Part shown: positions 10,960 through 58,581 of the stretch, piece by piece | Layout of the letters: every line of letters starts with the position of its first letter | Numbering within the stretch: the stretch's first letter is position 1 | IMG/VR virus record: IMGVR_UViG_3300032308_002010 | Span: 1 to 64,000 of that record | DNA from: a virus | DNA: 64,000 nt | Reading direction: 5' to 3' (one strand) | Notes under the pieces: model-generated | Databases searched by the model: none | Told to the model about the DNA's origin: nothing | The model's input: the letters and a program-made list of their open reading frames with translations, nothing else | Program-made: the position numbers and the translations under genes

Positions 10960-11198
10960 TTTGATATCAAGTCCTTCAGTTTGCGGAATAGTTGCCGCAC
11001 GGCCGGCATGAGCTGCCGTTTTCTTGGTGGCTCCGCGCCGGGCTCAACGTTCTGAGAAGATAAGCCGCCAGACTGATCGTCTAACTCGCTTCGGCAGTAG
11101 TCGAGGTAGAGTTGCCAGTTTTCATAGGCGTCTCGATCTTCTGCGGATTCATATGGGATGTAGGGTGGTTCGTCTGGGACTCTGTCGTTCCAGCCCAT
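10956..11198 (-). CDS. hypothetical protein overlapping the csrA 3' end
   Basis: AAGGA SD 9 nt upstream of ATG; stop overlaps the next ATG (ATGA). Confidence 0.5.
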   Translation of the reverse strand: MGWNDRVPDEPPYIPYESAEDRDAYENWQLYLDYCRSELDDQSGGLSSQNVEPGAEPPRKRQLMPAVRQLFRKLKDLISK

Positions 11199-11371
11199 TT
11201 CTGTTTGTCCTTCTTTTTACTTCCGTCGATCAACTCGCCGCGAACAATGGTTGTTGTTTGCGGCGCAGTCAGACCGATCTTGACGCGATCGCCTGTGATT
11301 CCCAAAACCTTCACAATAATTCCGTCGCCAATTACAACTTCCTGTTCCGTCTTCCTTGAGAGTACAAGCAT
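11081..11371 (-). CDS. csrA: carbon storage regulator CsrA/RsmA-family RNA-binding protein
   Basis: MLVLSRK..QEVVIGDGIIVKVLGITGDRVKIGLTAP.TTTIVRGEL, the canonical CsrA core including the beta1 MLVLSR and the beta5 Arg. Confidence 0.93.
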   Translation of the reverse strand: MLVLSRKTEQEVVIGDGIIVKVLGITGDRVKIGLTAPQTTTIVRGELIDGSKKKDKQKWAGTTESQTNHPTSHMNPQKIETPMKTGNSTSTTAEAS

Positions 11372-11381
11372 TGTGTCACCA

Positions 11382-12053
11382 TCATGATGTAGTTGAACCT
11401 TGTAACATTTTTACGACATACTCCGTGTTGCCGTTTTTCAGGTCCAGCGCGGCCATTTGTTTGATAAGTAAATCCGTCTTCAATCGAACCGACTGGTTGA
11501 TGTCTTCTGTCTTTCCGGCTTCTAGATCGTAGACCGCGTTAAACATCGTCGGGTCATCTGAGAAGTCTGTAATGCTGGGGCTGACACGTGCCGCGCGCAA
11601 AGCAATACGCAGAATATCCGGTGCGTTGATAATTCCCTCGCTGTCCAGCACGGCGCCGATATAGCCGCGCACTTCGTCAGTGAACGGTTCTTTGTCGTCG
11701 TCTTCTGGCGGGCTGATCAGTAGCGCCTCTGTGATACCCCACGCGACCTCTTCGGCGTCTGCGGGGTCCCACATGTCCGGGCGGTATGTGTCGCCGCACA
11801 TCACGTTGCAGAACATCACAAAGTCCGGCAGGCTTTTAAAAAATTTGTCGGTCGTTAGGATCTGGATTGCGACTAGCAGCTTGTCGAGGGCCAGCTGGGG
11901 AAGCTCGACATCAAACTCTTCTTCGATTTCGAGGGTGATGGTCGCGGGGTCCCAGTCTAGGGCTTCGATGCCGAATTTATCCAGAAACAGGGTTAGTAGG
12001 ACGCTCGCAAACGTCTCCCGGCTTTTCCACGCTTCCTGCGCTATTGTCGACAT
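11382..12053 (-). CDS. hypothetical protein (acidic, helical)
   Basis: 223-aa ORF with protein-like composition. Confidence 0.7.
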   Translation of the reverse strand: MSTIAQEAWKSRETFASVLLTLFLDKFGIEALDWDPATITLEIEEEFDVELPQLALDKLLVAIQILTTDKFFKSLPDFVMFCNVMCGDTYRPDMWDPADAEEVAWGITEALLISPPEDDDKEPFTDEVRGYIGAVLDSEGIINAPDILRIALRAARVSPSITDFSDDPTMFNAVYDLEAGKTEDINQSVRLKTDLLIKQMAALDLKNGNTEYVVKMLQGSTTS

Positions 12054-12534
12054 TGAGACCGCTCCTGCTCTTGATGATCTGCACGCCCCGGCGGTACAGC
12101 TCGTCTAGATTATACGCAATCGTCTCCAGCGGCGGTCGAGGGATTTGAGCGACGTGGTCGCCAGATTCCAGCGAAACCCAGCCCGGCGCGCCTGTCCACG
12201 TGGCATAGCGGCCGTCTGCAAAAGCCAGCGTGTGCCCGCAGCCACTTGTGAGCGCATCGGCGTCGAGGCCCGCGTCGTACTGGGATCGCCGCATCATTTC
12301 GCCAACCAGCAGCCGCTGCTCGCTGGATAAGAATTGGAGGTTTTCCAGCATGTCGGCCAGCAGCAGGTAGAACACGGCCTCTTTGTCGACATAGTCGCTG
12401 CCGGCGGCAAATCCGCGCTGCAATACCGCGGTAAATATGCCGCGAACTTGTAGCTTGCTAAGTTTTACGACCCGCATTACCATATCAAGCGTCAGGTCTA
12501 TTTCTTCTACGGAGGTATTTATGTCCGTTTCCAT
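11977..12534 (-). CDS. hypothetical protein
   Basis: ORF track gives 11977..12681; more plausible starts are ATG 12534 or 12483. Confidence 0.55.
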   Translation of the reverse strand: METDINTSVEEIDLTLDMVMRVVKLSKLQVRGIFTAVLQRGFAAGSDYVDKEAVFYLLLADMLENLQFLSSEQRLLVGEMMRRSQYDAGLDADALTSGCGHTLAFADGRYATWTGAPGWVSLESGDHVAQIPRPPLETIAYNLDELYRRGVQIIKSRSGLNVDNSAGSVEKPGDVCERPTNPVSG

Positions 12535-12799
12535 TATTGACAACCTTTCTAATATCACGCAGGGCCGAGCTGAGATTATCGTCAGCGGCGATGGTATCGA
12601 GGAACTGCTTGCCGCCGCAACTGCAAACATGGTTTTGCAGAAAGCGGCCGAGGCTGGCCTGAATCGCCCGGGCGTATCCAACGCCAGCGGCCCCTACCCG
12701 GTAGACGCCGAAGGAAAGACCGACGATGAGCTAATGATGGGCAAGCGTGGCCCGGTCGCCGGCTACCGCCGAGATTTTGTTATCTTGGCGTCGCTCTGA
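12521..12799 (+). CDS. small hypothetical protein
   Basis: GGAGGT SD 4 nt before ATG 12521 (MSVSIIDN); stop abuts the convergent stop at 12800. Confidence 0.65.
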   Translation: MSVSIIDNLSNITQGRAEIIVSGDGIEELLAAATANMVLQKAAEAGLNRPGVSNASGPYPVDAEGKTDDELMMGKRGPVAGYRRDFVILASL

Positions 12800-13126
12800 T
12801 CAGGCGTCGTCTGGTCGGCTGACAATCAGCATATTCGTGGGCTTTCCGTACTCAAATGAGATAACGGCAAAGCACACTGGCGTCCTGCAGTCGATATCGA
12901 GCTTCTTCGTCGCGGCGTATCCGACGCGGAAGCTCGTTGTCTTTGCAGCTTTGATCGCGGCCGCCTTTGTCTTGAATAAGCCGACCGGCACGTCGTCCAT
13001 CGTGTGGCGCCACACGACAAGGTGGCCGGTAAGCCCGGGCACAACTTCGGTGCCCTTTGGTTTGCGCAGTAATTTGTTTACACCCGAGGCGCGCGGAGCG
13101 CGCCTCTTCTTTTGCGTTTTAGTCAT
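12800..13126 (-). CDS. basic hypothetical protein
   Basis: GAGG SD; Lys/Arg-rich N-terminus. Confidence 0.6.
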   Translation of the reverse strand: MTKTQKKRRAPRASGVNKLLRKPKGTEVVPGLTGHLVVWRHTMDDVPVGLFKTKAAAIKAAKTTSFRVGYAATKKLDIDCRTPVCFAVISFEYGKPTNMLIVSRPDDA

Positions 13127-13152
13127 ATTTGTACCTCTGCACTGACGCTCGT

Positions 13153-13722
13153 TTAGGGGAGCGGATTGTTTTCGGTTGGTTCTGCTGATGTGTCGTCGGC
13201 GTCCGTGTCGACCACAATTTTTGTCCGGCCGTTGCTGAAATATCGCGAACCGTAACTGGTAAAAATTTCATCGCCGGTGGCTATGTCTTTTTGCGCGATA
13301 AGATCCGCTACGTTTGCCGGCCAGTTAAAACTCCAGTTGGCGTTTGGAGCGTCTTGGTGGTTGTAGAGCATTCCGTATCCAAGCACCATGTACATGTGGT
13401 TCCCGTGCCGTTTGCACTCTTCGCAGGGGCACGAACTGTTTGTGTACAGGTAATTAAATAGCTGCGGGTCTTTGTGGTACTTTGTGCGAAACGCCAACTG
13501 AATCATTGGACACCGCTCGATCAGCTCGCCCTTTTTGATATCATTTGTCGCAAAAACACCGCGACCGTGTATGCCGGAATAACCAAGCTCGATTTTTGTC
13601 GGGCGAAACAACGGCACCCGCTCGGGTTCCGCTTTTTCTGCCGCGACTGTTTTTTCGACAGCTTCGGTTTCGGGCGCGTCTTGGATTTTTTCGTCATGTC
13701 CTTCTGTTTTGTCTTCCGACAC
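13153..13722 (-). CDS. SET-domain protein (putative lysine methyltransferase)
   Basis: SGIHGRGVFAT.DI.KGELIE, YNHQDAPNA and I..GDEIFTSYG motifs; CPCEECK.H insert. Confidence 0.88.
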   Translation of the reverse strand: MSEDKTEGHDEKIQDAPETEAVEKTVAAEKAEPERVPLFRPTKIELGYSGIHGRGVFATNDIKKGELIERCPMIQLAFRTKYHKDPQLFNYLYTNSSCPCEECKRHGNHMYMVLGYGMLYNHQDAPNANWSFNWPANVADLIAQKDIATGDEIFTSYGSRYFSNGRTKIVVDTDADDTSAEPTENNPLP

Positions 13723-13742
13723 GTTATTACCTCGTGTGTGAG

Positions 13743-14216
13743 TTATTCTTCGTGGCCAAATTTGTCGACGTGTGCAAGTCTAGCGCAATAAAATTCTGCG
13801 ACCATACCGGCTACCTTTTCGAACCTCTTCACTATGTCCGGTAGAATTTGCTCGTTAAAGACCCGCAGAATTACACGCCTGAATTTTGCGATCGCTTCGG
13901 GGGTGTAGCCGGCGGCGCGCGCATTTTCAGCAGCGGTCCGCACTTCTTGGCTGCTGTCGAGTTGAATCTGGATGAAGGCTGGGTTAACAAACTCAATAAT
14001 GTGGCCGTACGTCTGACGAACTTCGTACGGGTACGGAACGTCAAACACAGGGGGTCCGGGCCATTGCTCTCCATTCACTTTATCCTTTGACATGTATCGC
14101 AGCTTCCCCAACGTCCAACCGAATGCGGCTGCGTCATCATTCGGTTCAGCCAGCACAAAGGCTGGTTTCGGCGCTGGTGGTTGCTTGTCGAGTTTTGCTT
14201 TGCTTTTACGCGCCAT
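13743..14216 (-). CDS. hypothetical protein
   Basis: 157-aa ORF in a co-directional chain. Confidence 0.6.
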   Translation of the reverse strand: MARKSKAKLDKQPPAPKPAFVLAEPNDDAAAFGWTLGKLRYMSKDKVNGEQWPGPPVFDVPYPYEVRQTYGHIIEFVNPAFIQIQLDSSQEVRTAAENARAAGYTPEAIAKFRRVILRVFNEQILPDIVKRFEKVAGMVAEFYCARLAHVDKFGHEE

Positions 14217-14250
14217 GATTCACAATAGCTAAGGAAAATTGGGACAGTTT

Positions 14251-14327
14251 TGTTCTGACTGCGTAGCCGGGAATCACATCAGCCGTCATAAGACGATTAG
14301 ATGTGTCCCGACTACACAGTCAGAACA
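14251..14327 (-). ncRNA. long intergenic RNA hairpin (function unknown)
   Basis: Arms TGTTCTGACTGCGTAGCCGGGAATCACATC and GATGTGTCCCGACTACACAGTCAGAACA. The two C-A mismatches on + are G-U pairs on -. Inner CGUC-UUAU-GACG stem-loop. Confidence 0.6.
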
Positions 14328-14336
14328 CGCCGAAGA

Positions 14337-14711
14337 TCAATCTCCGGCGGTGCAAGCAAGGTACGCATGATAGCGCGCTACTTCCTCAATGTTAGGATTA
14401 ACCTCTTTAAACACTGGCTCATCATCCATAGTGGCCAGTTCACCTCGAAACATCGCGGTCGTATATTCGTGATACAGCCGAGCCATATCTCCGCGAATTT
14501 TCTTCTTGGTGAATTTAAGCACGTGCTCCTTCAAGAAGGCAGCACGTTCCCAGAAGTTCGGCATCAGATCAAGCTGATCCCGAAACTTCTCTGCAGTTTT
14601 CTCGAAAAGTTTATGCGCCCTATCAGGAACAATCTGAAATTGGGGCACGGTCTTTTTGCATCGAGCGGTAACTGCAAGGCGGATTTTCTCCGCCGGGGCC
14701 GAAAGAAGCAT
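14337..14711 (-). CDS. hypothetical protein
   Basis: 124-aa ORF ending in TGA just upstream of the hairpin. Confidence 0.6.
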   Translation of the reverse strand: MLLSAPAEKIRLAVTARCKKTVPQFQIVPDRAHKLFEKTAEKFRDQLDLMPNFWERAAFLKEHVLKFTKKKIRGDMARLYHEYTTAMFRGELATMDDEPVFKEVNPNIEEVARYHAYLACTAGD

Positions 14712-14836
14712 GCGTTAACTCCGTTGTAACGCGGTAGAGAAGAGCCGCTAATACGATATAGCAGCGACAATAAATATGCCGCGTTTTTGGCAAAAATTTA
14801 GCGCTTGTCCTGTGTTCGCGAATCGCGAATATACCT

Positions 14837-14863
14837 GCCCTGTAAGGACTTACGGCGCAGGGC
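14837..14863 (-). terminator. possible terminator hairpin ending the structural operon
   Basis: GCCCUG...CAGGGC stem directly after the stop at 14866; the U-tract is weak. Confidence 0.3.
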
Positions 14864-14865
14864 GG

Positions 14866-15171
14866 CTAGAAAGTTAGCTGTACAACTTGGCCGCCGGAGT
14901 TCACATAGATCACGCGAACTTTATTGGTGTCTAGTAGCGCCTTGAGCTGCATCTTTTTTTCGCTGCTCATACCAGCAAGGCACGACTTGATCTGGGCCAT
15001 TGCGCTACGGCGCTTCTCTTGGCGTTTACGCGCGCACGCACTACACCCGCCCGACTCGTTACTTTTAAGGACGTCCCGCTTGTTGTAAAAACACGGGATC
15101 GACTCGGCGTACGCGGGGTCATTCAGTAATGATATTATTGTGCTGTCTTCTAGCACTACCATGTCACGCAT
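14866..15171 (-). CDS. small Cys-containing protein (GGCSAC), likely paralog of 16265..16621
   Basis: Shared MV.l....I..l...P.f...P N-terminus, GCxC and KV.v.YV C-terminus. Confidence 0.6.
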   Translation of the reverse strand: MRDMVVLEDSTIISLLNDPAYAESIPCFYNKRDVLKSNESGGCSACARKRQEKRRSAMAQIKSCLAGMSSEKKMQLKALLDTNKVRVIYVNSGGQVVQLTF

Positions 15172-15178
15172 ATAAACC

Positions 15179-15988
15179 TCACGCTGCGGGCGTAACCGGA
15201 TTAGCGGCTGTGATGTCGGCGCCGATGCCGGCTACGTTTACCGCCGCCACACGGAAGCGATAGGCTGTGCCGTTTGTCAGCCCTGTTACAGTAAATGTTG
15301 TCAGGGTAGAAACAGGCCGCGCGACTGTTGTCCAATTGGGTGCGCCGGCTGCCAGTGTTCTTTGAATTCTGTAGTCTGTAATAACCGCACCGCCGTTATT
15401 TGTTGGCGCTACCCACGTCAGTACAGCGCGCGCGTTGCCACCGGCGACTTGCAGGTTTGTTGGCGCGGCGGGAACAGTCGGTGGCGTTCCAACCCACAGT
15501 TCGCCGGCCGGGAGCAGGGTGTCTGCGATGTCTAGCGTTGTCTTGAGTCGCTGCACGTCGTCAATGACTTCTTCGATAAACGCTTTGACTTCTGCGCGCG
15601 AGCGGAGCAGCACGTCGACATAATTCAACCGAAACCACGCTGGGCGGTAATTTGGAATCGGGTCGTCTTCTGGATACTCTTCTAAGTCTGTGGGAGAGCA
15701 GACGTGATCAAATGCGCCTACCCGTTCGTTTGCGCCGGGTTTAAGCGGCAGCATTTGGTAGGCAAAGATCTTTGTCGGCATCTGTGTCGCGTTACTGGCT
15801 GTAATGCGTACCCGGATACCGTCAGTAGTTTCGTAGTTATATCTGCTGACTTGCCACGTAAGTTTAACGTTCCGCGCGCTTCCGCTTGGGGGCGGCGGGT
15901 CTATATCTGGAATGTAGAAGTTTAATCCAAGCGTGTCAGGCAGCAGAATTGGTTCTTCTTGCGGGCCCTGTGAGCAGCAATCTGTCAT
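15179..15988 (-). CDS. virion protein with C-terminal fibronectin type III domain
   Basis: PAAPTNL....GN..AVLTW.AP...GG..ITDY.I...W......ST.T.FTVTGLTNGT.YRFRV.AVN..G.G is canonical FN3. Confidence 0.85.
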   Translation of the reverse strand: MTDCCSQGPQEEPILLPDTLGLNFYIPDIDPPPPSGSARNVKLTWQVSRYNYETTDGIRVRITASNATQMPTKIFAYQMLPLKPGANERVGAFDHVCSPTDLEEYPEDDPIPNYRPAWFRLNYVDVLLRSRAEVKAFIEEVIDDVQRLKTTLDIADTLLPAGELWVGTPPTVPAAPTNLQVAGGNARAVLTWVAPTNNGGAVITDYRIQRTLAAGAPNWTTVARPVSTLTTFTVTGLTNGTAYRFRVAAVNVAGIGADITAANPVTPAA

Positions 15989-15989
15989 G

Positions 15990-16268
15990 TTATCCTTGCT
16001 CCGGTAATACGCTGGCTGTGATGTTTACTGGTCCCGGTGTTGTCGAGCGCACATAAGCGAGCGCTAAACCCTCGTTGTCGGTCGGGCCGGGCTGCGTGAT
16101 CTGCGCTGTTGCAACATCAGCAGAAATTTCAACCTGCCGTCCGGGTACTGGTCGGTCGCAGTCGTCGCGTAAACGAATTTTGACGACGGCCGCTTTTGTG
16201 CCGTCTGCTAGTACTTGCGGTTTTGACCCGTACAAGATTTTAGAGTTTTGCGGGCTAACGTAGCTCAT
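15990..16268 (-). CDS. stand-alone Ig-like (Big_1/invasin-type) domain protein
   Basis: ATG 16268 coupled by ATGA; ADG..A.V.I.L.D...PV.G..V......TD..G.A......PG...ITA pattern. Confidence 0.7.
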   Translation of the reverse strand: MSYVSPQNSKILYGSKPQVLADGTKAAVVKIRLRDDCDRPVPGRQVEISADVATAQITQPGPTDNEGLALAYVRSTTPGPVNITASVLPEQG

Positions 16269-16621: not shown

Positions 16622-16673
16622 TTTTTTCTTCCGTTGCCGTTTGGTCGTATTCTAATGGGTCTGAAAAAAAATG

Positions 16674-17711: not shown

Positions 17712-17714
17712 GGT

Positions 17715-22511
<4,797 letters not shown>

Positions 22512-22512
22512 G

Positions 22513-26035: not shown

Positions 26036-26038
26036 AAT

Positions 26039-28601: not shown

Positions 28602-30527
28602 TCATGTTGCGCTGTAAATAATTCCGGTGACGCGCAATACGCCAATCTCTCCGTAAACGCTGTCCTCAACGCGCCCGATTGTTACTAATACGGTGTCGCC
28701 CTCTTCTATACGATCGTTTTCATTACCACCAAACGGATCGCTGTCTCTCGTAATGGCGTGATCAATAAACAAATTTGCGCTAGAGTTAAAATTTAACAGC
28801 GCGTCTGTAGTCGGTAAATTTATGCCGTCAGCGGATGTCAATGCCGGCGATTTCAGGGTTCTTCGTGTCATGTACAGCGACGGCATAACTTTGCGCTGCT
28901 GTTGCGTGCCGTCACGCCCGAACAACTGCACACGAATTTTCATACGCAAATTGTCGCCAATATTACTTCCGGGCACATTAAACCGCAGACGAAGCAAAGA
29001 AGCTTGCCCGCCCGGAAAACCGAGATACGGAATGTCCATATACAAGCGCTCGACGGTGTCGCTCAATCTGATGATCTGTGGCGAAAGCTCGCGCTCAACA
29101 AGTTGATCGGTGTAGTCGATTTTTAAAACGCCTTGATGCAGCGTAATTGGCGCTGTTGTTTGAATATCAAAAGCGTCTTTTTCTGCTTGCGTTAGCGTTC
29201 GCGGCGTTTCCCGCGAACCCGTTATCGAAATTTGATTTGATAGCGTGAAGGCACCTTCGGTAATCCAGCCGCGCGTAAGTTGGTGTCGGTTAATCACGCC
29301 TTTTAACGCGCGGCCTCCGATTGCCTCCGCAGCTGCGATTTGTAAGTCGAGATTTAGCTGCAGATCGCCAGTCGACGCAGGATCGTCCGCGCAGTTTGTA
29401 ACTGCGATCGGGCTGGTGACTGTTGTCGCAACCGGTGTTGCTGCGGTTTCTGTCGCGTCTGCGTCGTCGACATCTTTTACGAGGCTCGTGACTACGTTTC
29501 TGTCGTTGCCAGCTAGCATGCGCAAATAAACAACAGACACGCGCATTTTTTCGTAGCGCGGACATTCTGTGCCGACTGGTGGTGTCGTTGGCGCTGTAAA
29601 AGGAACGTCGCCCGCGCAGTTGCTCATCCACCAAATACCGTTTGTGTCGCAAATCGCCAGCCCGTTTTGCCCAAGCGGAATTTCTGTAGCGCCGACAAGT
29701 CCATTTCCTTTATCCCACAGCATGGCAACAGATTGAATCGGCAGCGGCGGCCACACGTTAGACAGCGCCGAATGCTGCGAAAGGTTGTAACCAAACACGG
29801 CGCCACTAGGAGCTTTGCCGTTAAAAATAGCATTGTTCGCCGGCAGCCACCCGGGCAACGACGTGTTTGGGTTTGTAATAGTTACGCGCTGCAAACCGTC
29901 TAACGTAAATGTTGTTTGAGTGCCGGCAGCTGTTGTTGTAAGGTCAAAGCGATAGTGGGTGTGCTCGTCGATGAAGTCGCGGATGTGCGGCATTACGACA
30001 ACGCGAGGAACTGTTGTGCAGCTGTCTTTGGGACCTTGCACATGACATACAGTTACAGTTACTGGCGGTTTCTGTTTTACAAGTTTGCCCGCGTCGGTTG
30101 CTGACAGGTAGTAGCGGCCCGGTGTAATTGGACCGTCAATCGCGTTAGCCAGATCGGGGATTTCGATAATCCCGCGCAACACGATGTCACCCAGCGTAGC
30201 GGAACGTTTTCTTAAGCAGATGCCGACACAATCTGACGACGGCTGAACGAGTAAAACTTGCGTTTCGGGATCAGATGCAACGGCTGCCAGCGCCGGCTCA
30301 TACCGTTTTTCAACCCAGTTCCAATAAACCGGTTGCCCGGGTTGCACGGAACTGCAAATCGTAGCGTCACTATCGACAAGCACGCGCCCGAGCGCCGCGG
30401 CATCTAGTCGATCTTTAAGATAGTCTGTCCGGTCTTCGAGCGTACGGTCGGGGCGTGAAACCACACCGGCCTGTACAGGCTCACCCGGATTGACGTGTTT
30501 AATGTTGTGCAGCCAGTTACCGGACAT
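28602..30527 (-). CDS. putative tail/baseplate structural protein
   Basis: N-terminal DRTLEDRTDYLK resembles a fibre-base segment; G....PG..YYLS....GKL motif typical of phage tail/decoration beta folds. Confidence 0.55.
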   Translation of the reverse strand: MSGNWLHNIKHVNPGEPVQAGVVSRPDRTLEDRTDYLKDRLDAAALGRVLVDSDATICSSVQPGQPVYWNWVEKRYEPALAAVASDPETQVLLVQPSSDCVGICLRKRSATLGDIVLRGIIEIPDLANAIDGPITPGRYYLSATDAGKLVKQKPPVTVTVCHVQGPKDSCTTVPRVVVMPHIRDFIDEHTHYRFDLTTTAAGTQTTFTLDGLQRVTITNPNTSLPGWLPANNAIFNGKAPSGAVFGYNLSQHSALSNVWPPLPIQSVAMLWDKGNGLVGATEIPLGQNGLAICDTNGIWWMSNCAGDVPFTAPTTPPVGTECPRYEKMRVSVVYLRMLAGNDRNVVTSLVKDVDDADATETAATPVATTVTSPIAVTNCADDPASTGDLQLNLDLQIAAAEAIGGRALKGVINRHQLTRGWITEGAFTLSNQISITGSRETPRTLTQAEKDAFDIQTTAPITLHQGVLKIDYTDQLVERELSPQIIRLSDTVERLYMDIPYLGFPGGQASLLRLRFNVPGSNIGDNLRMKIRVQLFGRDGTQQQRKVMPSLYMTRRTLKSPALTSADGINLPTTDALLNFNSSANLFIDHAITRDSDPFGGNENDRIEEGDTVLVTIGRVEDSVYGEIGVLRVTGIIYSAT

Positions 30528-30535
30528 CCTTGTCC
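30522..30535 (-). promoter_or_regulatory. CsrA/Rsm-type site overlapping the start codon
   Basis: GGAC-AAGGAU-GUCC: 4-bp stem, ARGGAU hexaloop, contains ACAAGGAUGU and includes the AUG at 30527. Confidence 0.6.
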
Positions 30536-35116: not shown

Positions 35117-35584
35117 TTATTTACCAGCGTTAATGTGCGATTGCACGCCGTCCTTTAAAAATGAAAACACGCTTTTCTTGGCGAGACTGTGCCCGTCGAG
35201 CCGGCCGTGCATGAAACAGGCGCAACGAATAAGGCTCGCATGACGTAACCGCCAGCCGCGCTCTTCGGTGGCCATAAAATCTGCTTGCCACTTCATCGCA
35301 ACAAGATCGCCAGTAGTGCCGCCCTCTTTCCCGGGACCAGACAATACGCTCATCGAGTAAATCTGATTGATGTTATCGCGGTTCCAGCTTGGCTCGTGTA
35401 GATTTGGTACGTCCAGCAGCTCCTTGTCTTTTAGTTCGTCGGGCGTGTGCCAGTCGCGCGCGTCGCCTTGATATCTGAACGATGTTGACATTTGCCCGGC
35501 GCGTGATTCAAGCTGATTGACGCGCGCTTCAAATTTGCCGTCAACCTGTCCCTTAGTCGTTCCAATCCCTTGCGGCTTATCCAT
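35117..35584 (-). CDS. hypothetical protein in the baseplate module
   Basis: 155-aa ORF tightly packed in the operon. Confidence 0.6.
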   Translation of the reverse strand: MDKPQGIGTTKGQVDGKFEARVNQLESRAGQMSTSFRYQGDARDWHTPDELKDKELLDVPNLHEPSWNRDNINQIYSMSVLSGPGKEGGTTGDLVAMKWQADFMATEERGWRLRHASLIRCACFMHGRLDGHSLAKKSVFSFLKDGVQSHINAGK

Positions 35585-48720: not shown

Positions 48721-48752
48721 CTTGTTTGTTTTCGCTATATCAGCGTATCTGA

Positions 48753-49184: not shown

Positions 49185-49231
49185 AATTCACCTGCTGTTG
49201 TTGGGTTAGTACTTACTTATCAATTACGCGA

Positions 49232-52200
49232 TTAGACCACTAAGTGCAGCTCAATGTTGTTGAGCGGCGCCGGGACAGTCAGATCAAGCACAATCTCGAT
49301 ACGATCCTTGAGCAGCGGATGAATCTGCAGCTTACGAATCGCGCCGTCGATGAGCTGCGAGCCCAGCTCCTCGGTATTACCGTTGCCCTTGAGGAAATCG
49401 ATAATTGCCGTGACTTCGTAACGTAACCGACGCACCATACCCGGCTGCGCGTTCGTGCGGCCGATGAACGGCTTCAGACGGCGGTAGAACAGGTACGACA
49501 TGCTATCGACGTTACGACGAATCATTTCTTCACGGCGGTTCAGATCGAGGTTGTCGGTCGTCAAGGCGTGACGCGTGTGCGGCGTTCCGTCCTTGTCTTC
49601 CGTCACGATCCAGACGCCGGCCTCAGCCATGCGGTTAAGCTGGGTTTCGTTGAGGTACTTGTAGGAGCGCGAGAAGTCGTCAAACCCGGCAACCTCAACG
49701 TTCGTCAGCGGCTGGTGGGGCACCACGCCGGAGACGAGACCGGCCAGAGCGGCCGCGAGGTAGTAACCGGGCTGGATCGTGCCGGCTTCACCGACCTGAT
49801 CCGGCCACACGGCGCACACGCGACGGTTCGAGAGCGAACCACCCTGTTGCGCAATGTCTTCAACGATCTCGTTGCGGTTACGGTTGTGCCAAACCTCGAC
49901 GCGCTGCGGAACTGTAACCGCGGCGTCAGCGCCGGAGTACAGCAGCAGGGTCGATTCCGAGATAACCTGATCCACAACGTACTCTTCGTACTGCTCTTCG
50001 CCGAAACCGTCGACCGAGTAGTTGTAGCGCACGATATCGCCGGGGCGTACGTCATTTGTGATGAAGTAACCGTTGCCCGACGTAACCGTCAGCTTCGTGT
50101 ACTGCGTGTTGGTAGCGTTCGGGTCGTCGGCGAGCGAGGCAAGAACCGGGTCGTTAACCGTTTCGCCAAGCACACCTGCGATGCTCACGCCCTCACCAAC
50201 AACCTGAGCGACCGGCTGCGCCTTGAGGGCGAAGAAGCCAGCCTTCCAGTTGTTCGCGTACTCGTTCGACTCGCCGCCGATGTGCGCGGCCCACAGGTTT
50301 TGAATCCTGCGGTCGAACGTCATCGGAACGAGGTTATACATGTCGTCGCGGCCCTTGATGCGCTCAAGCACCTGTACCCACTTGTCCATGTCGACACCGA
50401 GCGAGCGACCCTCTTGGTCGTACTTCTCGGGGTCAGCTACGGCGGTGTACTTCACCACGGTGCCGTTGCTGTTGGAGAGCGCCTTGTAAACGCCCCACTT
50501 CAGCGGGTTATCAGGATCGAGCTGGCCCTTGATGTTGTCGAGGTCAGCCACGTCGCTGATCGAGTTGACCTGATCGGCCAGCTCAGACAGCCACTCGCGA
50601 TACTCGACGTACACCTTGCCAGAAATAACCGGCAGGGGTTGCTCGGCGCCGGCGCTGGTCCACTCGGGGTGGTAAGCGACGATGCCTTCCTGCACGCAGA
50701 TCTGGGTGTCTTCGTACCAGAAGTTGGTCATCGGGGCGAATCCGATCCGATTCTTCGAGATCTGGATGTTGTCCTTGATGAACAGCTTGAGGTCCATGTC
50801 TTCGCCGCTGATCAGCTGGCATGTCGCTGTAGCTGTCACCGCGCCGGGGCCAGCCGGTGGCGCCGAAAGCGTGACAGTCGGAGCGCTGGTGTAACCGGCG
50901 CCACGATCTGTGACCACAATGTTAACAACTCTGTCGGTGTTCTCGCCTTGAATGCTACCGAGCACAGCGTAACCGACGGCAGTACGAGCCTGCACAAGGT
51001 TGCCTGTCGGAGCCGAGAACGTCACAGTCGGGGCGGCGCCGTAACCGTCTCCAGCGTTGGTGATGCTGACCGGACCCACCTTGTCGACCGGCGCGCCGTC
51101 CTGCGTGAGCAGTACGGTCGGGAGGTCGTCGCGAAGGATGAGCTTGCGCACCGGGCCGGCCTTGCTGGAGTTAACAGTGATGTACCACTTGTCACCCTTG
51201 CGCAGACCAGCAACAGCGAAGTTGTCCTCTTGGTCGGCAGCGCCGACAAAGCGAACTTTAACGCCGTTCGTGCCGATGGCTACAGAGACGGCGTTACCGC
51301 CGGCGCCGTCGCCAGTTACTTCGGTCGGGCCGGAGAAGTCGAGGCCCTTGACGGTACGCACGGTGATCTCGGGAAGCTGAGCCCACGTGCCGCCCTTGGT
51401 GCACTCAACGACGTACGTGTCGTTCTTCGCGCCGGCGTACTTGCCAAGGATGTCAACCGCGCCGACAACGCCGTTTACCGACTCTTCAGTCTGGTACGCG
51501 CCGTCAGCGTCCGAAACAGCCCGGACCTTTTCGTACGTCTGCTTGACGTCAAACTTCCACTTCTGACCGACAACAAAGTTATCAAGATTAAGCGTTGTGA
51601 AACGCACCGAGAGGCCGCGGGTGCCGATGAACGTCACGCCGTCGTTGTCGTCAAAATCGTTCGGCTGAATTTCAGCCTGATCATCAGTGCCGGTTCCAGA
51701 CACAACACGCAGACGCGCGGCGTTGCAGCCAGAAATCGTGCTCTTGATGACTTCGACGTAGTACTCTTCTTCAACAGCGCCGGAGGGAAGGCCGTCATAA
51801 TCATTGGCACCTTCGTCTTGGGCGTCGAGGACGGTCACTGAAACGGCGTTATCAACACCCTCGATCTGCGTAACAGTTACGTCAACGCCGCTGGCGCTTT
51901 CGGCTGTGTAGCTATCTTGGTTGTTGATGTCAGCGACGGCCGGCAGAATGCGCGACGGAACAAGGTCGCTGGCGAAGCCGGTTACGTATGTCTCAAGCAC
52001 GGTCTCGATGCAGTCGTTGTCGGCGCTCACAGTGCGGAGCTGAACAACGTCGCCGAGTTGCACGTCACGATCAAAGAACGCGCTCGATCGCGGGTAAGCA
52101 GCGCCGTTCGACTTGAACGACAGCGTGCTGGACGCAATCCAGTTAGTCTTGCCGGGCACAGCTGTAATCGTCGTGTCGCTCTCGCCCATGTTGTGCTGGT

Positions 52201-52468
52201 AGTAACGCAGCATGGCGTCGTCAGCGTAAAGCTTGACGTAGGGAAGATCGACAACCGAGCCGGGCAGACGTTGCGGCCACGTGTAGCACGTATCGTTAAG
52301 ACGATCGTACTGGCCAAGAAGACAAAACCGCTTCTCGTCCGTGTTGCTATAGCGGTGAAGAATGCCATGCGGGCCAGCGATGTGGGCGCGCAGCGGCTCC
52401 GTGATCTCCGTGGGGACGATACGGAACTCTTGGAAAACAAGAACTTGTGGTTTTACGTAGCTCGACAT
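49232..52468 (-). CDS. tail sheath protein (enlarged)
   Basis: C-terminal sheath core (AAALAGLVSG..PHQPLTN...GF...LNRMAE.GVWIV...RH.LTT...E.I.RNVD...Y...L..FIG..N); strong high-expression codon bias. Confidence 0.9.
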   Translation of the reverse strand: MSSYVKPQVLVFQEFRIVPTEITEPLRAHIAGPHGILHRYSNTDEKRFCLLGQYDRLNDTCYTWPQRLPGSVVDLPYVKLYADDAMLRYYQHNMGESDTTITAVPGKTNWIASSTLSFKSNGAAYPRSSAFFDRDVQLGDVVQLRTVSADNDCIETVLETYVTGFASDLVPSRILPAVADINNQDSYTAESASGVDVTVTQIEGVDNAVSVTVLDAQDEGANDYDGLPSGAVEEEYYVEVIKSTISGCNAARLRVVSGTGTDDQAEIQPNDFDDNDGVTFIGTRGLSVRFTTLNLDNFVVGQKWKFDVKQTYEKVRAVSDADGAYQTEESVNGVVGAVDILGKYAGAKNDTYVVECTKGGTWAQLPEITVRTVKGLDFSGPTEVTGDGAGGNAVSVAIGTNGVKVRFVGAADQEDNFAVAGLRKGDKWYITVNSSKAGPVRKLILRDDLPTVLLTQDGAPVDKVGPVSITNAGDGYGAAPTVTFSAPTGNLVQARTAVGYAVLGSIQGENTDRVVNIVVTDRGAGYTSAPTVTLSAPPAGPGAVTATATCQLISGEDMDLKLFIKDNIQISKNRIGFAPMTNFWYEDTQICVQEGIVAYHPEWTSAGAEQPLPVISGKVYVEYREWLSELADQVNSISDVADLDNIKGQLDPDNPLKWGVYKALSNSNGTVVKYTAVADPEKYDQEGRSLGVDMDKWVQVLERIKGRDDMYNLVPMTFDRRIQNLWAAHIGGESNEYANNWKAGFFALKAQPVAQVVGEGVSIAGVLGETVNDPVLASLADDPNATNTQYTKLTVTSGNGYFITNDVRPGDIVRYNYSVDGFGEEQYEEYVVDQVISESTLLLYSGADAAVTVPQRVEVWHNRNRNEIVEDIAQQGGSLSNRRVCAVWPDQVGEAGTIQPGYYLAAALAGLVSGVVPHQPLTNVEVAGFDDFSRSYKYLNETQLNRMAEAGVWIVTEDKDGTPHTRHALTTDNLDLNRREEMIRRNVDSMSYLFYRRLKPFIGRTNAQPGMVRRLRYEVTAIIDFLKGNGNTEELGSQLIDGAIRKLQIHPLLKDRIEIVLDLTVPAPLNNIELHLVV

Positions 52469-52473
52469 ACGTC

Positions 52474-52487
52474 TCGGCCTCCGTGCC
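52474..52487 (-). promoter_or_regulatory. CsrA/Rsm-type hexaloop at the sheath SD
   Basis: GGC-ACGGAG-GCC. Confidence 0.5.
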
Positions 52488-52521
52488 TAAATTTTACGTG
52501 TGTGCGGTAGGGCGTTCAGGT

Positions 52522-52540
52522 CGTAGTATACACAACTACG
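52522..52540 (-). promoter_or_regulatory. candidate late promoter (TATACT) within a 6-bp inverted repeat
   Basis: CGTAGT-TGTGTAT-ACTACG on -, in the intergenic gap upstream of the sheath. Confidence 0.4.
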
Positions 52541-52571
52541 GGTTTGCAAAAAAAACACCCCATAAAAATTC

Positions 52572-53282: not shown

Positions 53283-53346
53283 CGGATTTGTCCTTTAAAT
53301 TTTTGTCGTACATATCGCCTGACGCAAACAAACTTATCTTTGGCGG

Positions 53347-53362
53347 CAAAATTCGAATTTTG
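53347..53362. promoter_or_regulatory. perfect 16-bp palindrome, possible operator
   Basis: CAAAATTCGAATTTTG in an intergenic gap. Confidence 0.35.
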
Positions 53363-53396
53363 TCTAACCGCGGTTCGGCCGGATTTTTTTTGGTCA

Positions 53397-54629: not shown

Positions 54630-54689
54630 TGCTTATTTGAGCCTCCGCGCGGGTCGACATAAAAATATCATGTCAAACCGCGCAAAATA

Positions 54690-55682
54690 TCAATAACGAA
54701 TACGGATTGCGTCAGTGTAAGCCGAGTATTTATACGTCGAAGAAACCTCGCCGTAGCCACCCTCCAGATTGATACTGGCCTTTGTGGCGCGCACCCACTC
54801 GCGATACGCCTGCCACCGCATCTGGCCTGCGCGCTCGTAGCTGGCCTCTTTATTTTGGTCGTTTACTGACAACCCGGCCGCGGAGTAGTCAAACTGATTG
54901 CGGCGAAACTGCTCGGCCACCATCATGAATAAATTTGCGCAGATCCCCTCAAGCCAGTGATATCTAAACGGAAAAGATTGAGTGTTGTATACGGCGTCAA
55001 TTGGGGGCGGGATTTCGTTCCAGTACATAACAGGGCGCGCAATGGCTAGGGCAATCTCCGCGTCGTCAAACATTAAGCCATCGAGCAGAAAACTCTCGCC
55101 CGGAGCTGAGTCGCGGAGATGCAAACGGATCTCGGCAATACTCGGAGGTCCGCCCGGCTGGTTCACGCTATCAAACGTGCTGCGGGCGATTACCACCGAA
55201 AACGTATTAGAAAAGATTACACACGGCTGGTTACTGGCTTGCGCCGGCACACTGACAAGCGCCATCTCGCCGTAATACACGCCCGGGACGCTTGTGGCGT
55301 TGCTAGATAACGATACAGAGACTTTGCCTGTCTCGGGCGCCACAATCGTTGCCTGCACTTCTACGGGCGGATTCTGATTACCCAACGACAGCTGTTCTTT
55401 CAGCCGTAAAACCACCTTAAAGTCCTGCGGATCGTCGCACGCCGTCAGGCTCACCGGGCGGCCTTCGCGGTCGTGCATTGTCCACTCAATCGTGGCGCAC
55501 TGCCCCTGCGTCAGCGTAATCGCCCGCATACGAGTCAAAATGGGCTGGCCATTAACGCCAGATATCGGCGCGCTAACGACGTTTTGGCCGACGCACGAAA
55601 CTGGCGTAATAGATTGGCCGTTTGTGCTACCGTTGCAACACGGCACAATGGGGTGTTCAGCTGGTGTGGCGATGACGACCAT
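54690..55682 (-). CDS. head-tail adaptor/neck protein with N-terminal Ig-like (BppU-like) domain
   Basis: C-terminal EIR..LRD......LLD...F.D.EI..AI....WN..PP adaptor-like region; N-terminal G.V.V.L....T..PG.Y..E. Confidence 0.6.
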   Translation of the reverse strand: MVVIATPAEHPIVPCCNGSTNGQSITPVSCVGQNVVSAPISGVNGQPILTRMRAITLTQGQCATIEWTMHDREGRPVSLTACDDPQDFKVVLRLKEQLSLGNQNPPVEVQATIVAPETGKVSVSLSSNATSVPGVYYGEMALVSVPAQASNQPCVIFSNTFSVVIARSTFDSVNQPGGPPSIAEIRLHLRDSAPGESFLLDGLMFDDAEIALAIARPVMYWNEIPPPIDAVYNTQSFPFRYHWLEGICANLFMMVAEQFRRNQFDYSAAGLSVNDQNKEASYERAGQMRWQAYREWVRATKASINLEGGYGEVSSTYKYSAYTDAIRIRY

Positions 55683-55686
55683 GTGT

Positions 55687-55700
55687 ACCTCCGTGTAACA
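55687..55700 (-). promoter_or_regulatory. CsrA/Rsm-type hexaloop at the neck gene SD
   Basis: UAC-ACGGAG-GUA (ACACGGAGGU). Confidence 0.5.
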
Positions 55701-55710
55701 ACTACAGTAT

Positions 55711-55747
55711 AAACAAAAAGGGCCGGCCGCTTACGCAGCCAGCCCTT
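55711..55747 (-). terminator. rho-independent terminator of the capsid operon
   Basis: GGGCUGGCUGC-GUAA-GCGGCCGGCCC followed by UUUUUGUUU. Confidence 0.9.
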
Positions 55748-55772
55748 CGTGAGTCAAACAGATAAGTTAAGC

Positions 55773-56093
55773 TCAGTCCCAACCTTCCGGGCTCTTGGTG
55801 CCCAGCGCGTTGTCATCGAGCTTAAGCTGATCGACGCTGCCGTCGTCCTCGTCGGTGAGGTAAACAGCCGGCGACTTAGTGATGATCAAGTCGCCGTCTT
55901 CCAGCGCCGTTTCGAGCGCTTTGAACTGCCGCTGACCACCACGACCGCCCTTGCCGACCGTCGAGACGAGATCGCCGGGGACGGTGTACGTCTCGTTGTT
56001 CGCGAGACGCTTACCGTGCGCGCCGAGGAAGCCAAACACTCGGGCGGCGCCCGAAATGTTTTTAACTGTCGTGTATAAACCGGGTACTGCCAT
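55773..56093 (-). CDS. small head-associated protein
   Basis: Last gene before the terminator; same codon bias as the major capsid. Confidence 0.65.
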   Translation of the reverse strand: MAVPGLYTTVKNISGAARVFGFLGAHGKRLANNETYTVPGDLVSTVGKGGRGGQRQFKALETALEDGDLIITKSPAVYLTDEDDGSVDQLKLDDNALGTKSPEGWD

Positions 56094-56112
56094 TGTTAGT
56101 TACTCCATTTCT

Positions 56113-56502
56113 TCAGGATGCGCTTTGCAGAGCCGCGGCCGCAGCAGCCTGCAGCGTCAAAACAGCCTGCGCAATCGCAGGTTGATTAGCCGCTGCGCTT
56201 GCTACGTCGCCGTAAGCAGCCGCCTTTTCACCAGTGCCGCCAAGGCCCGCGGCCGCAAGCATCTCGTCAAGCTGCTTGTTAGCAACGTTGAGCGAGGATG
56301 CTTGCGCAGCCGCGACCTTTTCTTGCTCCGCCGTGTAGAGCACATGAAGCTTGGAGGCAGCGGCCCACATTTCTGCGGCTTCGCCTTCCGTACGCGGCTG
56401 AATGCCGTGCGCGGCAAGCTTCTCGAAGAAATACGGCGCGGCAAGTTCCGACACGATTGTGGCGTAAGCTTGCTCAGCCGCTTCTTTAACAGTATCAGAC
56501 AT
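56113..56502 (-). CDS. small Ala-rich head protein (KxA motifs)
   Basis: AAGGAG SD; KEAA, KLAA, KVAA, KAAA. Confidence 0.65.
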   Translation of the reverse strand: MSDTVKEAAEQAYATIVSELAAPYFFEKLAAHGIQPRTEGEAAEMWAAASKLHVLYTAEQEKVAAAQASSLNVANKQLDEMLAAAGLGGTGEKAAAYGDVASAAANQPAIAQAVLTLQAAAAAALQSAS

Positions 56503-56536
56503 AACGTGCTCCTTTGGGTTTAATTCCTACACGGCA

Positions 56537-57463
56537 TCACTTGAAGTTAACGCGAGCCAGACCGTTGGTATGGCCGAACGAGCCGCCCGAAGTCTGGTAA
56601 GCGAAGTACTCAAGCATGTAAGCTTCACGACGGATGTACATCGTGGTGGGCTCCAGCTCGTAGTTCTTGCCGATGAACTTCGGCGACGCGAACATGAACA
56701 GCGAGTCATCGGGGACAAGATCGCGCTTGATCGTGACGATCCAGCGGCAGTTGAGGAAGTTCGTCTCCGCCCAACCGTTCTTGATGATGTCCTGCGAGAA
56801 GTCACCGCCCATTTCGTCACGGCCGAACTTGAGGAGTTCCTTGATCGTGATGTTATTCACGAGGCAGGTTTCAACCTCAAAGTGCGACGGCGTGCGGGGC
56901 ATAACTTTCAGCGCGTCAACAAGGGTTTCACGCGTGATGCCGCCCGAAATTTCCTCGTACTGCACAGCGCCGCTAGCAACGTTGGCAACACCCGGAGTCG
57001 GAAGCACGGCGTTGAAGGCGGCAATAAACTTGCCGTCTTCTTCAGCCAGCATGTCCTTGATCATGTTGTCCGACAGCACCTGCCGGATGTCGATTACGTA
57101 CGTACGCAGCTCGTCGACGTCCTTCACAGCGCGGGGCGACACGATCCGGTCAAACATGACGCGGTAGCGCGGGCCACGGATGTAGAAGTTAATCGGGAGC
57201 GTCGCGAACGGAAGCGACACAGCCGCCGGGGAATCGGGCTCCTTGTCCACAACCTTAACGGGCTTGTCAGTATCAACCTGACGGTCGAGCTCGTCGTTGG
57301 TGATGGTCAGCGGCGGCATGATCCGCCGGTAGAACCCGTCTTCACGCATCTTGGTGCGCGTGAAGTCGTTAACCGCATCAATGGCCTGCTTCTGCATGCC
57401 GGGGGTGTCAAGCTGCTCAAAGAGCGTTTCGTTGAGCAGTTGGATCTCTTGCTGAGTGGGCAT
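56537..57463 (-). CDS. major capsid protein (putative HK97 fold)
   Basis: GGAGG SD 8 nt before ATG 57463; about 308 aa; strong codon bias; follows protease/scaffold/decoration genes; D..AEED..F and F..G.....G.A.V.F features. Confidence 0.85.
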   Translation of the reverse strand: MPTQQEIQLLNETLFEQLDTPGMQKQAIDAVNDFTRTKMREDGFYRRIMPPLTITNDELDRQVDTDKPVKVVDKEPDSPAAVSLPFATLPINFYIRGPRYRVMFDRIVSPRAVKDVDELRTYVIDIRQVLSDNMIKDMLAEEDGKFIAAFNAVLPTPGVANVASGAVQYEEISGGITRETLVDALKVMPRTPSHFEVETCLVNNITIKELLKFGRDEMGGDFSQDIIKNGWAETNFLNCRWIVTIKRDLVPDDSLFMFASPKFIGKNYELEPTTMYIRREAYMLEYFAYQTSGGSFGHTNGLARVNFK

Positions 57464-57467
57464 TTTG

Positions 57468-57483
57468 GGAACCTCCATGTTCC
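57468..57483 (-). promoter_or_regulatory. CsrA/Rsm-type hairpin at the major capsid SD
   Basis: GGAAC-AUGGAG-GUUCC (ACAUGGAGGU). Confidence 0.6.
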
Positions 57484-57503
57484 TGAATTAGTTAGGGATT
57501 AGA

Positions 57504-58085
57504 TCACGGATCAATGGTGGCCGCAGTGCCAGCCGGCAGGTACACGCACCAGAAGGAGAGTGTATCCACGCCATTGTGGTTCTTCGACGCGCCACTCGAA
57601 ACAACACCGCAAACCGGGTTTACGTACTGCACGGCGCTGGCCTTCGTCAGCACACCCTCAACGGCAGCGCCGCCAGAGGTGGGAGCAGTCAGAAGATCGC
57701 CGGGGTTGTACGTCACCGCGCTACCGCCGGACGTCTTCACGTACTCGGTGGTGGCGATTTCATAACCACCGGTCGCAACAAGACCCGACAGCTTGCCCGA
57801 GGGCGAAACTGCTTGGTGCATGAAGTTACCGGCCGCTGTGGTACCCGGATTGCTGACGTCAGCATCCGTCGAACCGTTCAGCAAGAAAATCGCGACGCCC
57901 GTGGCAGAGAGGCCCGGAACGAACACGTCCTTGCCGCCCTCTTTCGAGAGATGCACGACGCGACCGCGCGGGACATCATAAGCGACTGTGCTCAGCAGCT
58001 TGGCCGAGTAGTCGAGGGCCGTCATATCAAACCAGCCCTTTTTGACGTCAAGGCCGTGTTCAAACATAAGATCGGGAGCAGGCAT
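57504..58085 (-). CDS. capsid decoration/cement-like protein
   Basis: Immediately upstream of the capsid gene; beta-rich G......T.EY.....Y.PGDLLT....G.L pattern. Confidence 0.65.
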   Translation of the reverse strand: MPAPDLMFEHGLDVKKGWFDMTALDYSAKLLSTVAYDVPRGRVVHLSKEGGKDVFVPGLSATGVAIFLLNGSTDADVSNPGTTAAGNFMHQAVSPSGKLSGLVATGGYEIATTEYVKTSGGSAVTYNPGDLLTAPTSGGAAVEGVLTKASAVQYVNPVCGVVSSGASKNHNGVDTLSFWCVYLPAGTAATIDP

Positions 58086-58089
58086 TGTT

Positions 58090-58103
58090 AGACCTCCGTG
58101 TCT
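58090..58103 (-). promoter_or_regulatory. CsrA/Rsm-type hairpin at the decoration gene SD
   Basis: AGAC-ACGGAG-GUCU. Confidence 0.55.
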
Positions 58104-58139
58104 TTAGCAATTGGAAACGTGTTCCGGTAAGGGACGAAC

Positions 58140-58565
58140 TCAGGTAGTGGGCGGGTTGAGACCAAGGCCCGTAAACAACTTTACGTCAGAAGCCTTGAGG
58201 CGACCATCGCGGGCACCCACATACCCGCTCGTCAGGCTGGCTGTCGGGTCATAGCTGGCGGACTTTGTAGCCACCGGCGTGCCAAGACGAGCCATTTCAG
58301 CTGCGTTTTTATGCGCAGCTAATTTGATAACAAGTTCCATCGTGCGCACCGGGTCTTGAAGGGCGGCGGCGAGCGCTTCCTTCTGGTGGGCCTCGATCCG
58401 CTCGTTCTCCACGCACGCCTTGATGGCTTCGGGGATCAGGTGAGCCAGCTTTTCGCCGGTTTCAACCTGCGCCTTTTCGGCGGCGGCGGCTTTGGTCATC
58501 GCGGCATCGGAGTAACCGATGTAGTCGATGATCTTCTGTACGAGCGCGTTATTTTCGGTAGACAT
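58140..58565 (-). CDS. small scaffold-like head protein
   Basis: Helical; KAAA, KLAA, KNAA, KSAS; SD context ACACGGAGGU. Confidence 0.65.
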   Translation of the reverse strand: MSTENNALVQKIIDYIGYSDAAMTKAAAAEKAQVETGEKLAHLIPEAIKACVENERIEAHQKEALAAALQDPVRTMELVIKLAAHKNAAEMARLGTPVATKSASYDPTASLTSGYVGARDGRLKASDVKLFTGLGLNPPTT

Positions 58566-58581
58566 TAAAACCTCCGTGTGA

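Follow-up and report, generated by a model that had tools for sequence, protein, structure and literature searches.

Conserved CsrA-type hairpins at translation starts in a csrA-bearing jumbo-phage clade: candidate operators for a phage-encoded CsrA

The IMG/VR virus record IMGVR_UViG_3300032308_002010, a single contig of 193,815 bp (CheckV completeness 95%), carries short hairpins on the Shine-Dalgarno (SD) sequences or start codons of the phage's own genes, in which a hexaloop of the form ANGGAN is closed by a C-G pair, and it also encodes a protein of the CsrA family. These hairpins are real RNA elements under selection as structures, and their sequence and shape are exactly those of CsrA/RsmE operators. 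Judging from sequence, they are probably CsrA-type translational operators on the phage's own mRNAs, and the phage CsrA would be their most likely ligand. Below, the window is the first 64 kb of the record, and coordinates outside it are those of the same record. Gene calls based on open reading frames (ORFs) gave 196 genes across the whole genome, 190 of them on the minus strand, which is the sense strand throughout.

Hairpins at translation starts

An earlier, sequence-only reading of the window had proposed six C[ANGGAN]G hairpins. All six are exact CANGGANG sites, and each lies on an SD or a start codon (Table 1). The two near matches that it listed, at 849 and 15988, also exist, but neither is canonical, owing to the loop length of the former and the missing closing pair of the latter.

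Table 1. Hairpins, near matches and principal genes in the window (loops in square brackets).
Feature	Position	Strand	Description
csrA	11081-11371	minus	96 amino acids (aa); CsrA domain at aa 1-49 and a non-conserved C-terminal tail of ~47 aa
Major capsid protein gene	56537-57463	minus	308 aa; HK97 fold, from Foldseek with a weak model and from ESM Atlas
Hairpin GGAAC[AUGGAG]GUUCC	57468-57483	minus	SD of major capsid gene; AUG 8 nt downstream
Hairpin AGAC[ACGGAG]GUCU	58090-58103	minus	SD of 193-aa gene 57504-58085
Hairpin AC[ACGGAG]GU (short)	58570-58579	minus	SD of 141-aa gene 58140-58565
Hairpin UAC[ACGGAG]GUA	55686-55697	minus	SD of 330-aa gene 54690-55682
Hairpin GGC[ACGGAG]GCC	52476-52487	minus	SD of tail sheath gene 49232-52468
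Hairpin GGAC[AAGGAU]GUCC	30522-30535	minus	Holds AUG of 641-aa tail-region gene 28602-30527; directly 3' of its GGAGG SD
Near match GCAAGGAUAAC, C[AAGGAU]A	15989-16005	minus	No closing pair; upstream of fn3-domain (fibronectin-III) gene 15179-15988
Near match AAC[AAAGGAU]GUU	843-857	minus	7-nt loop containing AUG; outside the hexaloop class; gene start uncertain

Across the window, the 8-mer CANGGANG is not enriched, with 27 copies found and 25.1 expected. Its placement is uneven, however, as 18 of the 65 sense-strand copies in the genome lie 3-25 nt upstream of a called start, where 1.5 would be expected under uniform placement. Because GGAGG is itself an SD sequence, the relevant control is an SD-matched one. 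A 5´ CA precedes 12 of 22 GGAGG SDs, compared with four of 53 sense-strand GGAGG at other places and three of 43 GGAGH SDs (all counted genome-wide), and at the GGAGH SDs AA is the commonest 5´ context. CA is thus frequent at GGAGG and rare at GGAGH SDs, and therefore goes with the loop-closing G. The CA context is enriched over an SD-matched background, the comparison that the sequence-only reading had named. The motif is also 3.4 times commoner on the sense than on the antisense strand of the whole genome (65 versus 19 copies); only 18 of the 65 sense copies are at starts, and codon usage is a possible cause of the remaining asymmetry.

Of the 19 start-proximal motifs of this genome, 16 extend the C-G by one pair or more, and 13 have stems of at least 3 bp. 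Sense-strand hairpins with stems of at least 3 bp number 24 in the whole genome, and 15 of these are located at called starts, at distances of -7 to +19 nt; of the remainder, several lie at plausible alternative starts or just within a gene. On their own the hairpins are weak, with free energies of 0 to -4.8 kcal/mol, and most are not part of the minimum-free-energy (MFE) fold of the leader. The capsid hairpin (-4.8 kcal/mol) is the MFE structure of its leader. Such weakness of the free hairpins is as expected for a site that is clamped by a protein. Outside the window, a 9-bp hairpin, GACAGGCTC[ACGGAT]GAGCTTGTC (~82,412-82,436, minus strand), holds an ATG in its loop and closing pair and may mark the true start of a 134-aa gene, and TTGAC[ATGGAT]GTCAA (~78,030-78,045, minus strand) holds the AUG of gene 77678-78037.

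For comparison, we used relatives of the 308-aa protein, which are encoded at 65 loci in IMG/VR (identity 100% to 56%), on contigs mostly of 150-235 kb. The whole genomes of the relatives were gene-called by the same procedure as this genome, referred to as G000; the head region gave no blastn match to deposited phages. The capsid hairpin is retained in 31 distinct relatives, in which C, A, GGAG and G are invariant and the stems change compensatorily (GGAAC/GTTCC, AGAAC/GTTCT, AAGAC/GTCTT, GCAC/GTGC, CGATC/GATCG, TAAC/GTTA and TTC/GAA). In this alignment pairing holds for 86.5% of cells, whereas shuffles give 66.8% (0 of 500 as high), the stems show 24 double-sided changes, against 6.4 in shuffles (again 0 of 500), and the true register beats every slid register. 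The stem covariation that the sequence-only reading had suggested looking for is therefore present, in the capsid alignment as well as in the differing stems of the other orthologues described below.

The same structures recur genome-wide. Stems of at least 3 bp are found at 13 of 19 start-proximal motifs in G000, 8 of 15 in G006, 15 of 19 in G008, 32 of 49 in G009, 20 of 27 in G010 and 13 of 19 in G011, that is, at 101 of 148 in these six csrA-bearing genomes, where 14% would be expected (binomial 8e-51). The loop covers the SD in 79 of the 101, encloses the AUG in 20 (with a loop of AAGGAU or similar, the closing G being that of AUG) and lies elsewhere in two. When hairpins were scanned without bias, with loops of 3-9 nt and any GGA offset allowed, a single class was in excess, the 6-nt loop with GGA at positions 3-5 (91 versus a background of ~40), and it was the top class only in csrA-bearing genomes. 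Of these 91 hexaloops, 67 are closed by C-G, and 67 have A as the first nucleotide of the loop.

For the capsid, 193-aa, sheath and 641-aa genes, the hairpin is present at the orthologues in all four csrA-bearing genomes compared, with a different stem in each. The 193-aa orthologues have AGAC/GTTT, GTGAAC/GTTCAC and TC/GA (G006, G008 and G010, respectively) and none in csrA-less genomes; the sheath orthologues have TCAGC/GCTGA, GGC/GCC and GC/GC, and a 7-bp version survives in G024. The hairpin at the start codon of the 641-aa gene, likewise retained in four of four, has GCC/GGC, TGCC/GGCA and GCTC/GAGC as its other stems, and the G006 orthologue of the 141-aa gene carries GATC[ATGGAG]GATT. 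Unlike in this genome, canonical hairpins are found at the orthologues of the fn3 gene in G008 and G010, namely CGCCC[AGGGAG]GGGCG and GGCC[AGGGAT]GGCC. The hairpin of the 330-aa gene is not retained at its orthologues in G006, G008 and G010.

The gene downstream of the 57468 hairpin had been taken to encode the major capsid protein. This is supported by Foldseek with an AlphaFold model, whose 28 matches at E<=1e-3 are all HK97-type capsid proteins or encapsulins, the model being poor (predicted local distance difference test, pLDDT, 53) and supporting the fold class only, and by ESM Atlas, in which the neighbours of the 308-aa protein are named major capsid. As the start of this gene, ATG 57463 is more likely than ATG 57478, which lies within the loop, since an ATG is absent from the loop in those relatives that have ACGGAG there. 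The sheath label also stands, since the 1078-aa protein matches the tail-sheath families phrog_2839 and phrog_279. The labels "decoration" and "neck" given earlier to the 193-aa and 330-aa products are putative, as neither has a family match in Pfam or PHROG; the same two databases gave no match for the capsid, 141-aa, 793-aa, 241-aa and 384-aa proteins.

Hairpins outside the window are found on the 793-aa and 241-aa genes, which adjoin phage RNA polymerase genes, on the gene for a SEC-C-motif protein and on several small genes in the tRNA region. A gene with PG_binding_1 and Peptidase_M10 domains (~82,060-82,085, minus strand) has one hairpin before its AUG and another directly after it. The earlier idea of a switch for late or structural genes is not supported by a set that includes the SEC-C protein, small genes of the tRNA region and this peptidoglycan-binding metallopeptidase. 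The hairpin set is not purely structural, and a "late switch", like any role in timing or balance, is speculation. The leaders of the sheath gene (52490-52560) and the 330-aa gene (55700-55760), both on the minus strand, each contain a GC hairpin with a T-run that resembles a terminator. After it comes a shared TGT(G/T)TATACT(A/G) motif, at 20-45 nt upstream of the candidate operator, which could be a promoter for the two genes.

The phage csrA and its co-occurrence with the hairpins

The csrA gene found by the sequence-only reading in the window is borne out by three comparisons. Residues 1-49 of the product match Pfam CsrA (PF02599, a 53-position model) with 67.4 bits against a cut-off of 27, the product also matches phrog_9500 "CsrA-like regulator", and its best matches in the Protein Data Bank are RsmE (2JPP) and CsrA (1VPZ and 1Y00). 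RNA binding requires CsrA residues 2-7 and 40-47 (PMC5864733). In alignment with RsmE 2JPP and CsrA 1Y00, the phage protein retains L2, L4, R6, R44 and E46, and its MLVLSRK and TIVRGEL segments align with MLILTRK and VAVHREEI of RsmE. Across 11 CsrA proteins of the clade, L2, V3, R6, V30, A36, R44 and E46 are invariant, and the C-terminal tail differs in length and sequence. Given the Pfam match and the retained RNA-binding residues, the phage csrA is an intact gene of the family whose product looks competent for RNA binding.

The gene takes several forms in relatives. G007 has a 184-aa frame with two CsrA-domain matches and G011 a 174-aa frame, and G010 and G021 have two separate copies each. 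Relatives of the clade CsrA are encoded at 246 viral loci in IMG/VR, and some of the csrA-bearing contigs (234, 269, 364 and 527 kb) are without this capsid family. Two genes upstream of csrA in the window lies a gene for a 189-aa SET-domain protein (13153-13722, minus strand; PF00856, E 4.6e-15).

We compared the distribution of csrA, searched for in whole records with the Pfam CsrA model, with that of the hairpins. The gene was found in each of the 11 relatives that bear hairpins and have a completeness of 90% or more. The most distant relatives, G012, G013 and G014 (90-100% complete), which form a sister clade in the capsid tree (support 99/99), have none detectable by hidden Markov model (HMM) search or by tblastn with the clade proteins (best E 0.17). 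These csrA-less genomes are rich in GGAGG SDs (57, 80 and 66, respectively), yet a CA context is found at only 13 of the 203, compared with 83 of 246 in csrA-bearing genomes (Fisher 3e-13). Stems of at least 3 bp are seen at one of 16 motifs, which is chance level, and none of 14 orthologues of hairpin genes has a hairpin; the same genes have plain GGAGG SDs. The argument made earlier, that neither the 5´ CA nor the stems are accounted for by pairing with the anti-SD, is thus upheld by relatives with abundant GGAGG. As regards the csrA-bearing genomes, GGAGG SDs number 23 in the 196 genes here, 19 in G008, 32 in G011, 77 in G009 and 51 in G010. A low count could reflect avoidance of GGA-containing SDs on non-targets, or different hosts; the counts in G009 and G010 do not fit the avoidance idea.

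A second and independent event is seen in G024, which is nested with the csrA-bearing G009 and G011 in the capsid tree (support 100/99). The genes that flank csrA in G007, G009, G010 and G011 adjoin in G024, where ~1 kb including csrA is missing, and no CsrA was detectable elsewhere in the G024 record. It still has 18 linear motifs, with stems of at least 3 bp at only two of them, whereas its sisters G009 and G011 together have such stems at 45 of 68 (p = 3e-5), and its orthologues retain none of 12 G009 hairpins and one of six G011 hairpins. This comparative pattern, with a sister clade that has neither part and a nested deletion followed by decay of the candidate operators, already exceeds a motif match in strength. 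When the genes of G000 and G009 were screened by phyletic profile, none besides csrA followed the hairpin distribution. One candidate, a 155-aa gene at 35117-35584, had appeared to track the hairpins; this was an artefact of the E-value threshold, as the gene is present in G024 at the syntenic place.

Candidate ligands and alternative explanations

We propose that the A-N-G-G-A-N sequence would be presented as a hexaloop, closed by C-G on a short and variable stem, with the loop on the SD in about four fifths of cases and around the AUG in about one fifth. A dimer of the CsrA family would clamp this loop and so control access of the 30S subunit. The ligand would most likely be the phage-encoded CsrA, which is favoured because its RNA-binding residues are retained, though host CsrA may also take part. 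Repression would be expected from the placement of the operators and by analogy with known CsrA targets. That a CsrA physically binds, which CsrA this is, and the sign and timing of regulation are all points that we infer. More speculatively, abundant operator-bearing transcripts could titrate a fixed pool of CsrA, giving a thresholded onset of, or a ceiling on, the synthesis of abundant virion proteins.

A broader version of this proposal, which we advance only tentatively, is that this clade of uncultured ~200-kb jumbo phages has a self-contained regulon made up of its own CsrA and 10-30 covarying operators per genome, dependent on csrA and acting as a titration-type translational gate on virion-protein synthesis. 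Dependence of the operators on the phage gene is suggested because the hairpins decay upon deletion of csrA.

Several observations weigh against operators that are read by the phage CsrA. G024 is only 84% complete. Without detectable csrA, G015 (68% complete) has 14 stems of at least 3 bp in 123 genes and G023 (78% complete) has six; G022 (76% complete, 40% GC), also without it, has two. These three lie in an unresolved part of the tree. In addition, csrA occupies two loci in two subclades, namely between a 391-aa and a 223-aa gene (G000, G006 and G008) and at a second locus (G007 and G009-G011), which allows separate acquisitions after the hairpins arose. The 391-aa/223-aa locus is on the contig without csrA in G015, G022 and G023, as is the flank of the second locus in G015 and G022. 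In these three relatives, csrA has either moved to the missing parts or been acquired more than once, elsewhere in the clade, after the hairpins arose; a search for csrA contigs from the G015/G023 metagenome found none among the best 80 loci. Of the relatives without detectable csrA, a group that the sequence-only reading had named for comparison, G012-G014 (90-100% complete) have hairpins at chance level only, and the incomplete G015 and G023 bear them.

Four unrelated csrA-bearing phages (Vibrio 431E45.1, Pseudomonas phi297 and IMG/VR records of 100 kb and 234 kb) have no SD hairpins, and the arrangement is therefore specific to the clade and not general to phage csrA. With regard to a sponge RNA of the CsrB/Rsm type, Rfam gave no match beyond tRNAs and tmRNA, and no intergenic region exceeds 3.2 GGA per 100 nt. 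A search of the 194-kb genome for FliW (PF02623) gave no match at E<=0.1. Other GGA triplets between -70 and +40 are available, though not enriched, at 1.64 per hairpin gene and 1.56 per other gene (p = 0.55). Finally, all gene starts come from a simple in-house ORF-based caller.

It is unlikely, in our view, that host CsrA is the main reader of the operators, with the hairpins pre-dating and independent of a phage csrA that is accessory and serves mainly to act on host mRNAs or just to supplement the host pool. Repeated later acquisition of csrA would point to host CsrA as the original ligand, and this reading is favoured by the hairpin-rich G015 and G023, in which no csrA is detectable although the known csrA loci are on their contigs, and by the two loci of the gene, along with an outgroup in which the 391-aa and 223-aa genes adjoin without csrA. 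Published proposals for CsrA of mobile elements also centre on host manipulation (PMC7366521, PMC11879866). However, every hairpin-bearing relative of at least 90% completeness has csrA, and the loss of stems with the csrA deletion in G024 would need a simultaneous move to a host without CsrA. The metagenome-assembled genome (MAG) bins that contain relatives are, moreover, taxonomically scattered (Gemmataceae, Phycisphaerae, Nannocystaceae, Nanopelagicales and Methylococcales), which also makes host assignment from them unreliable.

Still less probable is a role independent of CsrA, such as presentation of the SD in a loop, a signal for processing or stability, or recognition by another factor of the clade, with the link to csrA due to shared ancestry. 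The loop does contain the SD itself, the association with csrA rests on only about two evolutionary events, and incomplete relatives have hairpins without detectable csrA. Presentation of an SD, however, needs neither an invariant C-G closing pair nor an A at loop position 1, and a fifth of the sites enclose the AUG and not the SD. The stems are too weak to hold the structure unaided, the same genes have SDs of the plain GGAGG kind in the sisters without csrA, and no other gene tracks the hairpins. That there is no real feature, only a by-product of strong GGAGG SDs and base composition, can be rejected almost outright, as the chance-level count of CANGGANG in the window is outweighed by the controls matched for SDs, both in this genome and in relatives without csrA, by the stem excess and by the covariation.

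The genome also encodes a standard one-piece transfer-messenger RNA (tmRNA) outside the window (113,909-114,256, minus strand; Rfam RF00023, 127.7 bits), for which ARAGORN gives the tag peptide GAYAPALAA. It sits within a cluster of about eight tRNA genes, and one more tRNA gene is in the window (5841-5913, minus strand). The one-piece type of the tmRNA is not diagnostic of the host.

Relation to known CsrA systems and to phage repressors

The consensus of the RsmE-hcnA site is given as an (A/U)CANGGANG(U/A) hexaloop in two papers that both cite Schubert 2007 for it (PMC6849547, PMC5864733). The phage hairpins share this consensus with the RsmE-hcnA and CsrA-glgC operators. They also have in common with them the ANGGAN hexaloop, on a short stem with a closing C-G pair, and the overlap with the SD or with the start codon, the latter being the case in P. 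putida cfcR (PMC6849547, PMC5864733). For its part, the phage protein retains residues 2-7 and 40-47, including R44. What differs is that the regulator and its candidate targets, capsid and sheath among them, are both encoded by a jumbo phage of lytic type, and that no sponge small RNA was found in the genome and a second GGA is not enriched.

CsrA is a textbook global regulator of bacteria, and phage copies have been catalogued without assigned targets (PMC7366521, PMC11879866). One survey lists csrA in 30 of 2,517 phages (Sobrero & Valverde 2020, PMC7366521), and knock-down of the csrA gene gp28 of phage PTXU04 by CRISPRi-ART led to smaller plaques, its role having been untested before according to the authors (PMC11879866). 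These reports share with the present case a CsrA-family gene on a mobile element, but give no target sites within the genes of the element itself (PMC7366521, PMC11879866). The sequence-only reading had known of no described phage CsrA regulon of this kind, and our literature search similarly found no published description of one.

In Bacillus subtilis, CsrA occludes the SD of the hag mRNA, which encodes a very abundant, self-assembling structural protein, and FliW is part of the circuit. FliW-CsrA is mentioned in PMC5864733. The candidate sites described here resemble this case in that the SD of an mRNA for an abundant structural protein would be targeted; unlike in B. subtilis, the phage is without FliW, and the C-terminal tail of its CsrA is not conserved. 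Any coupling of the phage CsrA to assembly is speculation. Among phage regulators, RegA of T4 binds RNA and acts as a repressor of several mRNAs of its own phage, at the ribosome-binding sites; it targets early genes, and the sites are AU-rich and unstructured. RegA and the phage CsrA have unrelated folds, and the structured hairpins differ from the AU-rich, unstructured sites on early genes that RegA uses.

In this clade the candidate targets are explicit and conserved as well as numerous, and they fall on the most abundant structural genes of the phage itself. The role of a phage CsrA is therefore directly testable with a few RNAs and one small protein. If the proposal is true, the clade would have a phage translational regulon comparable in scope to that of T4 RegA and built from a captured host regulator, and the hairpins and their CsrA would make up a compact, portable repressor-operator pair.

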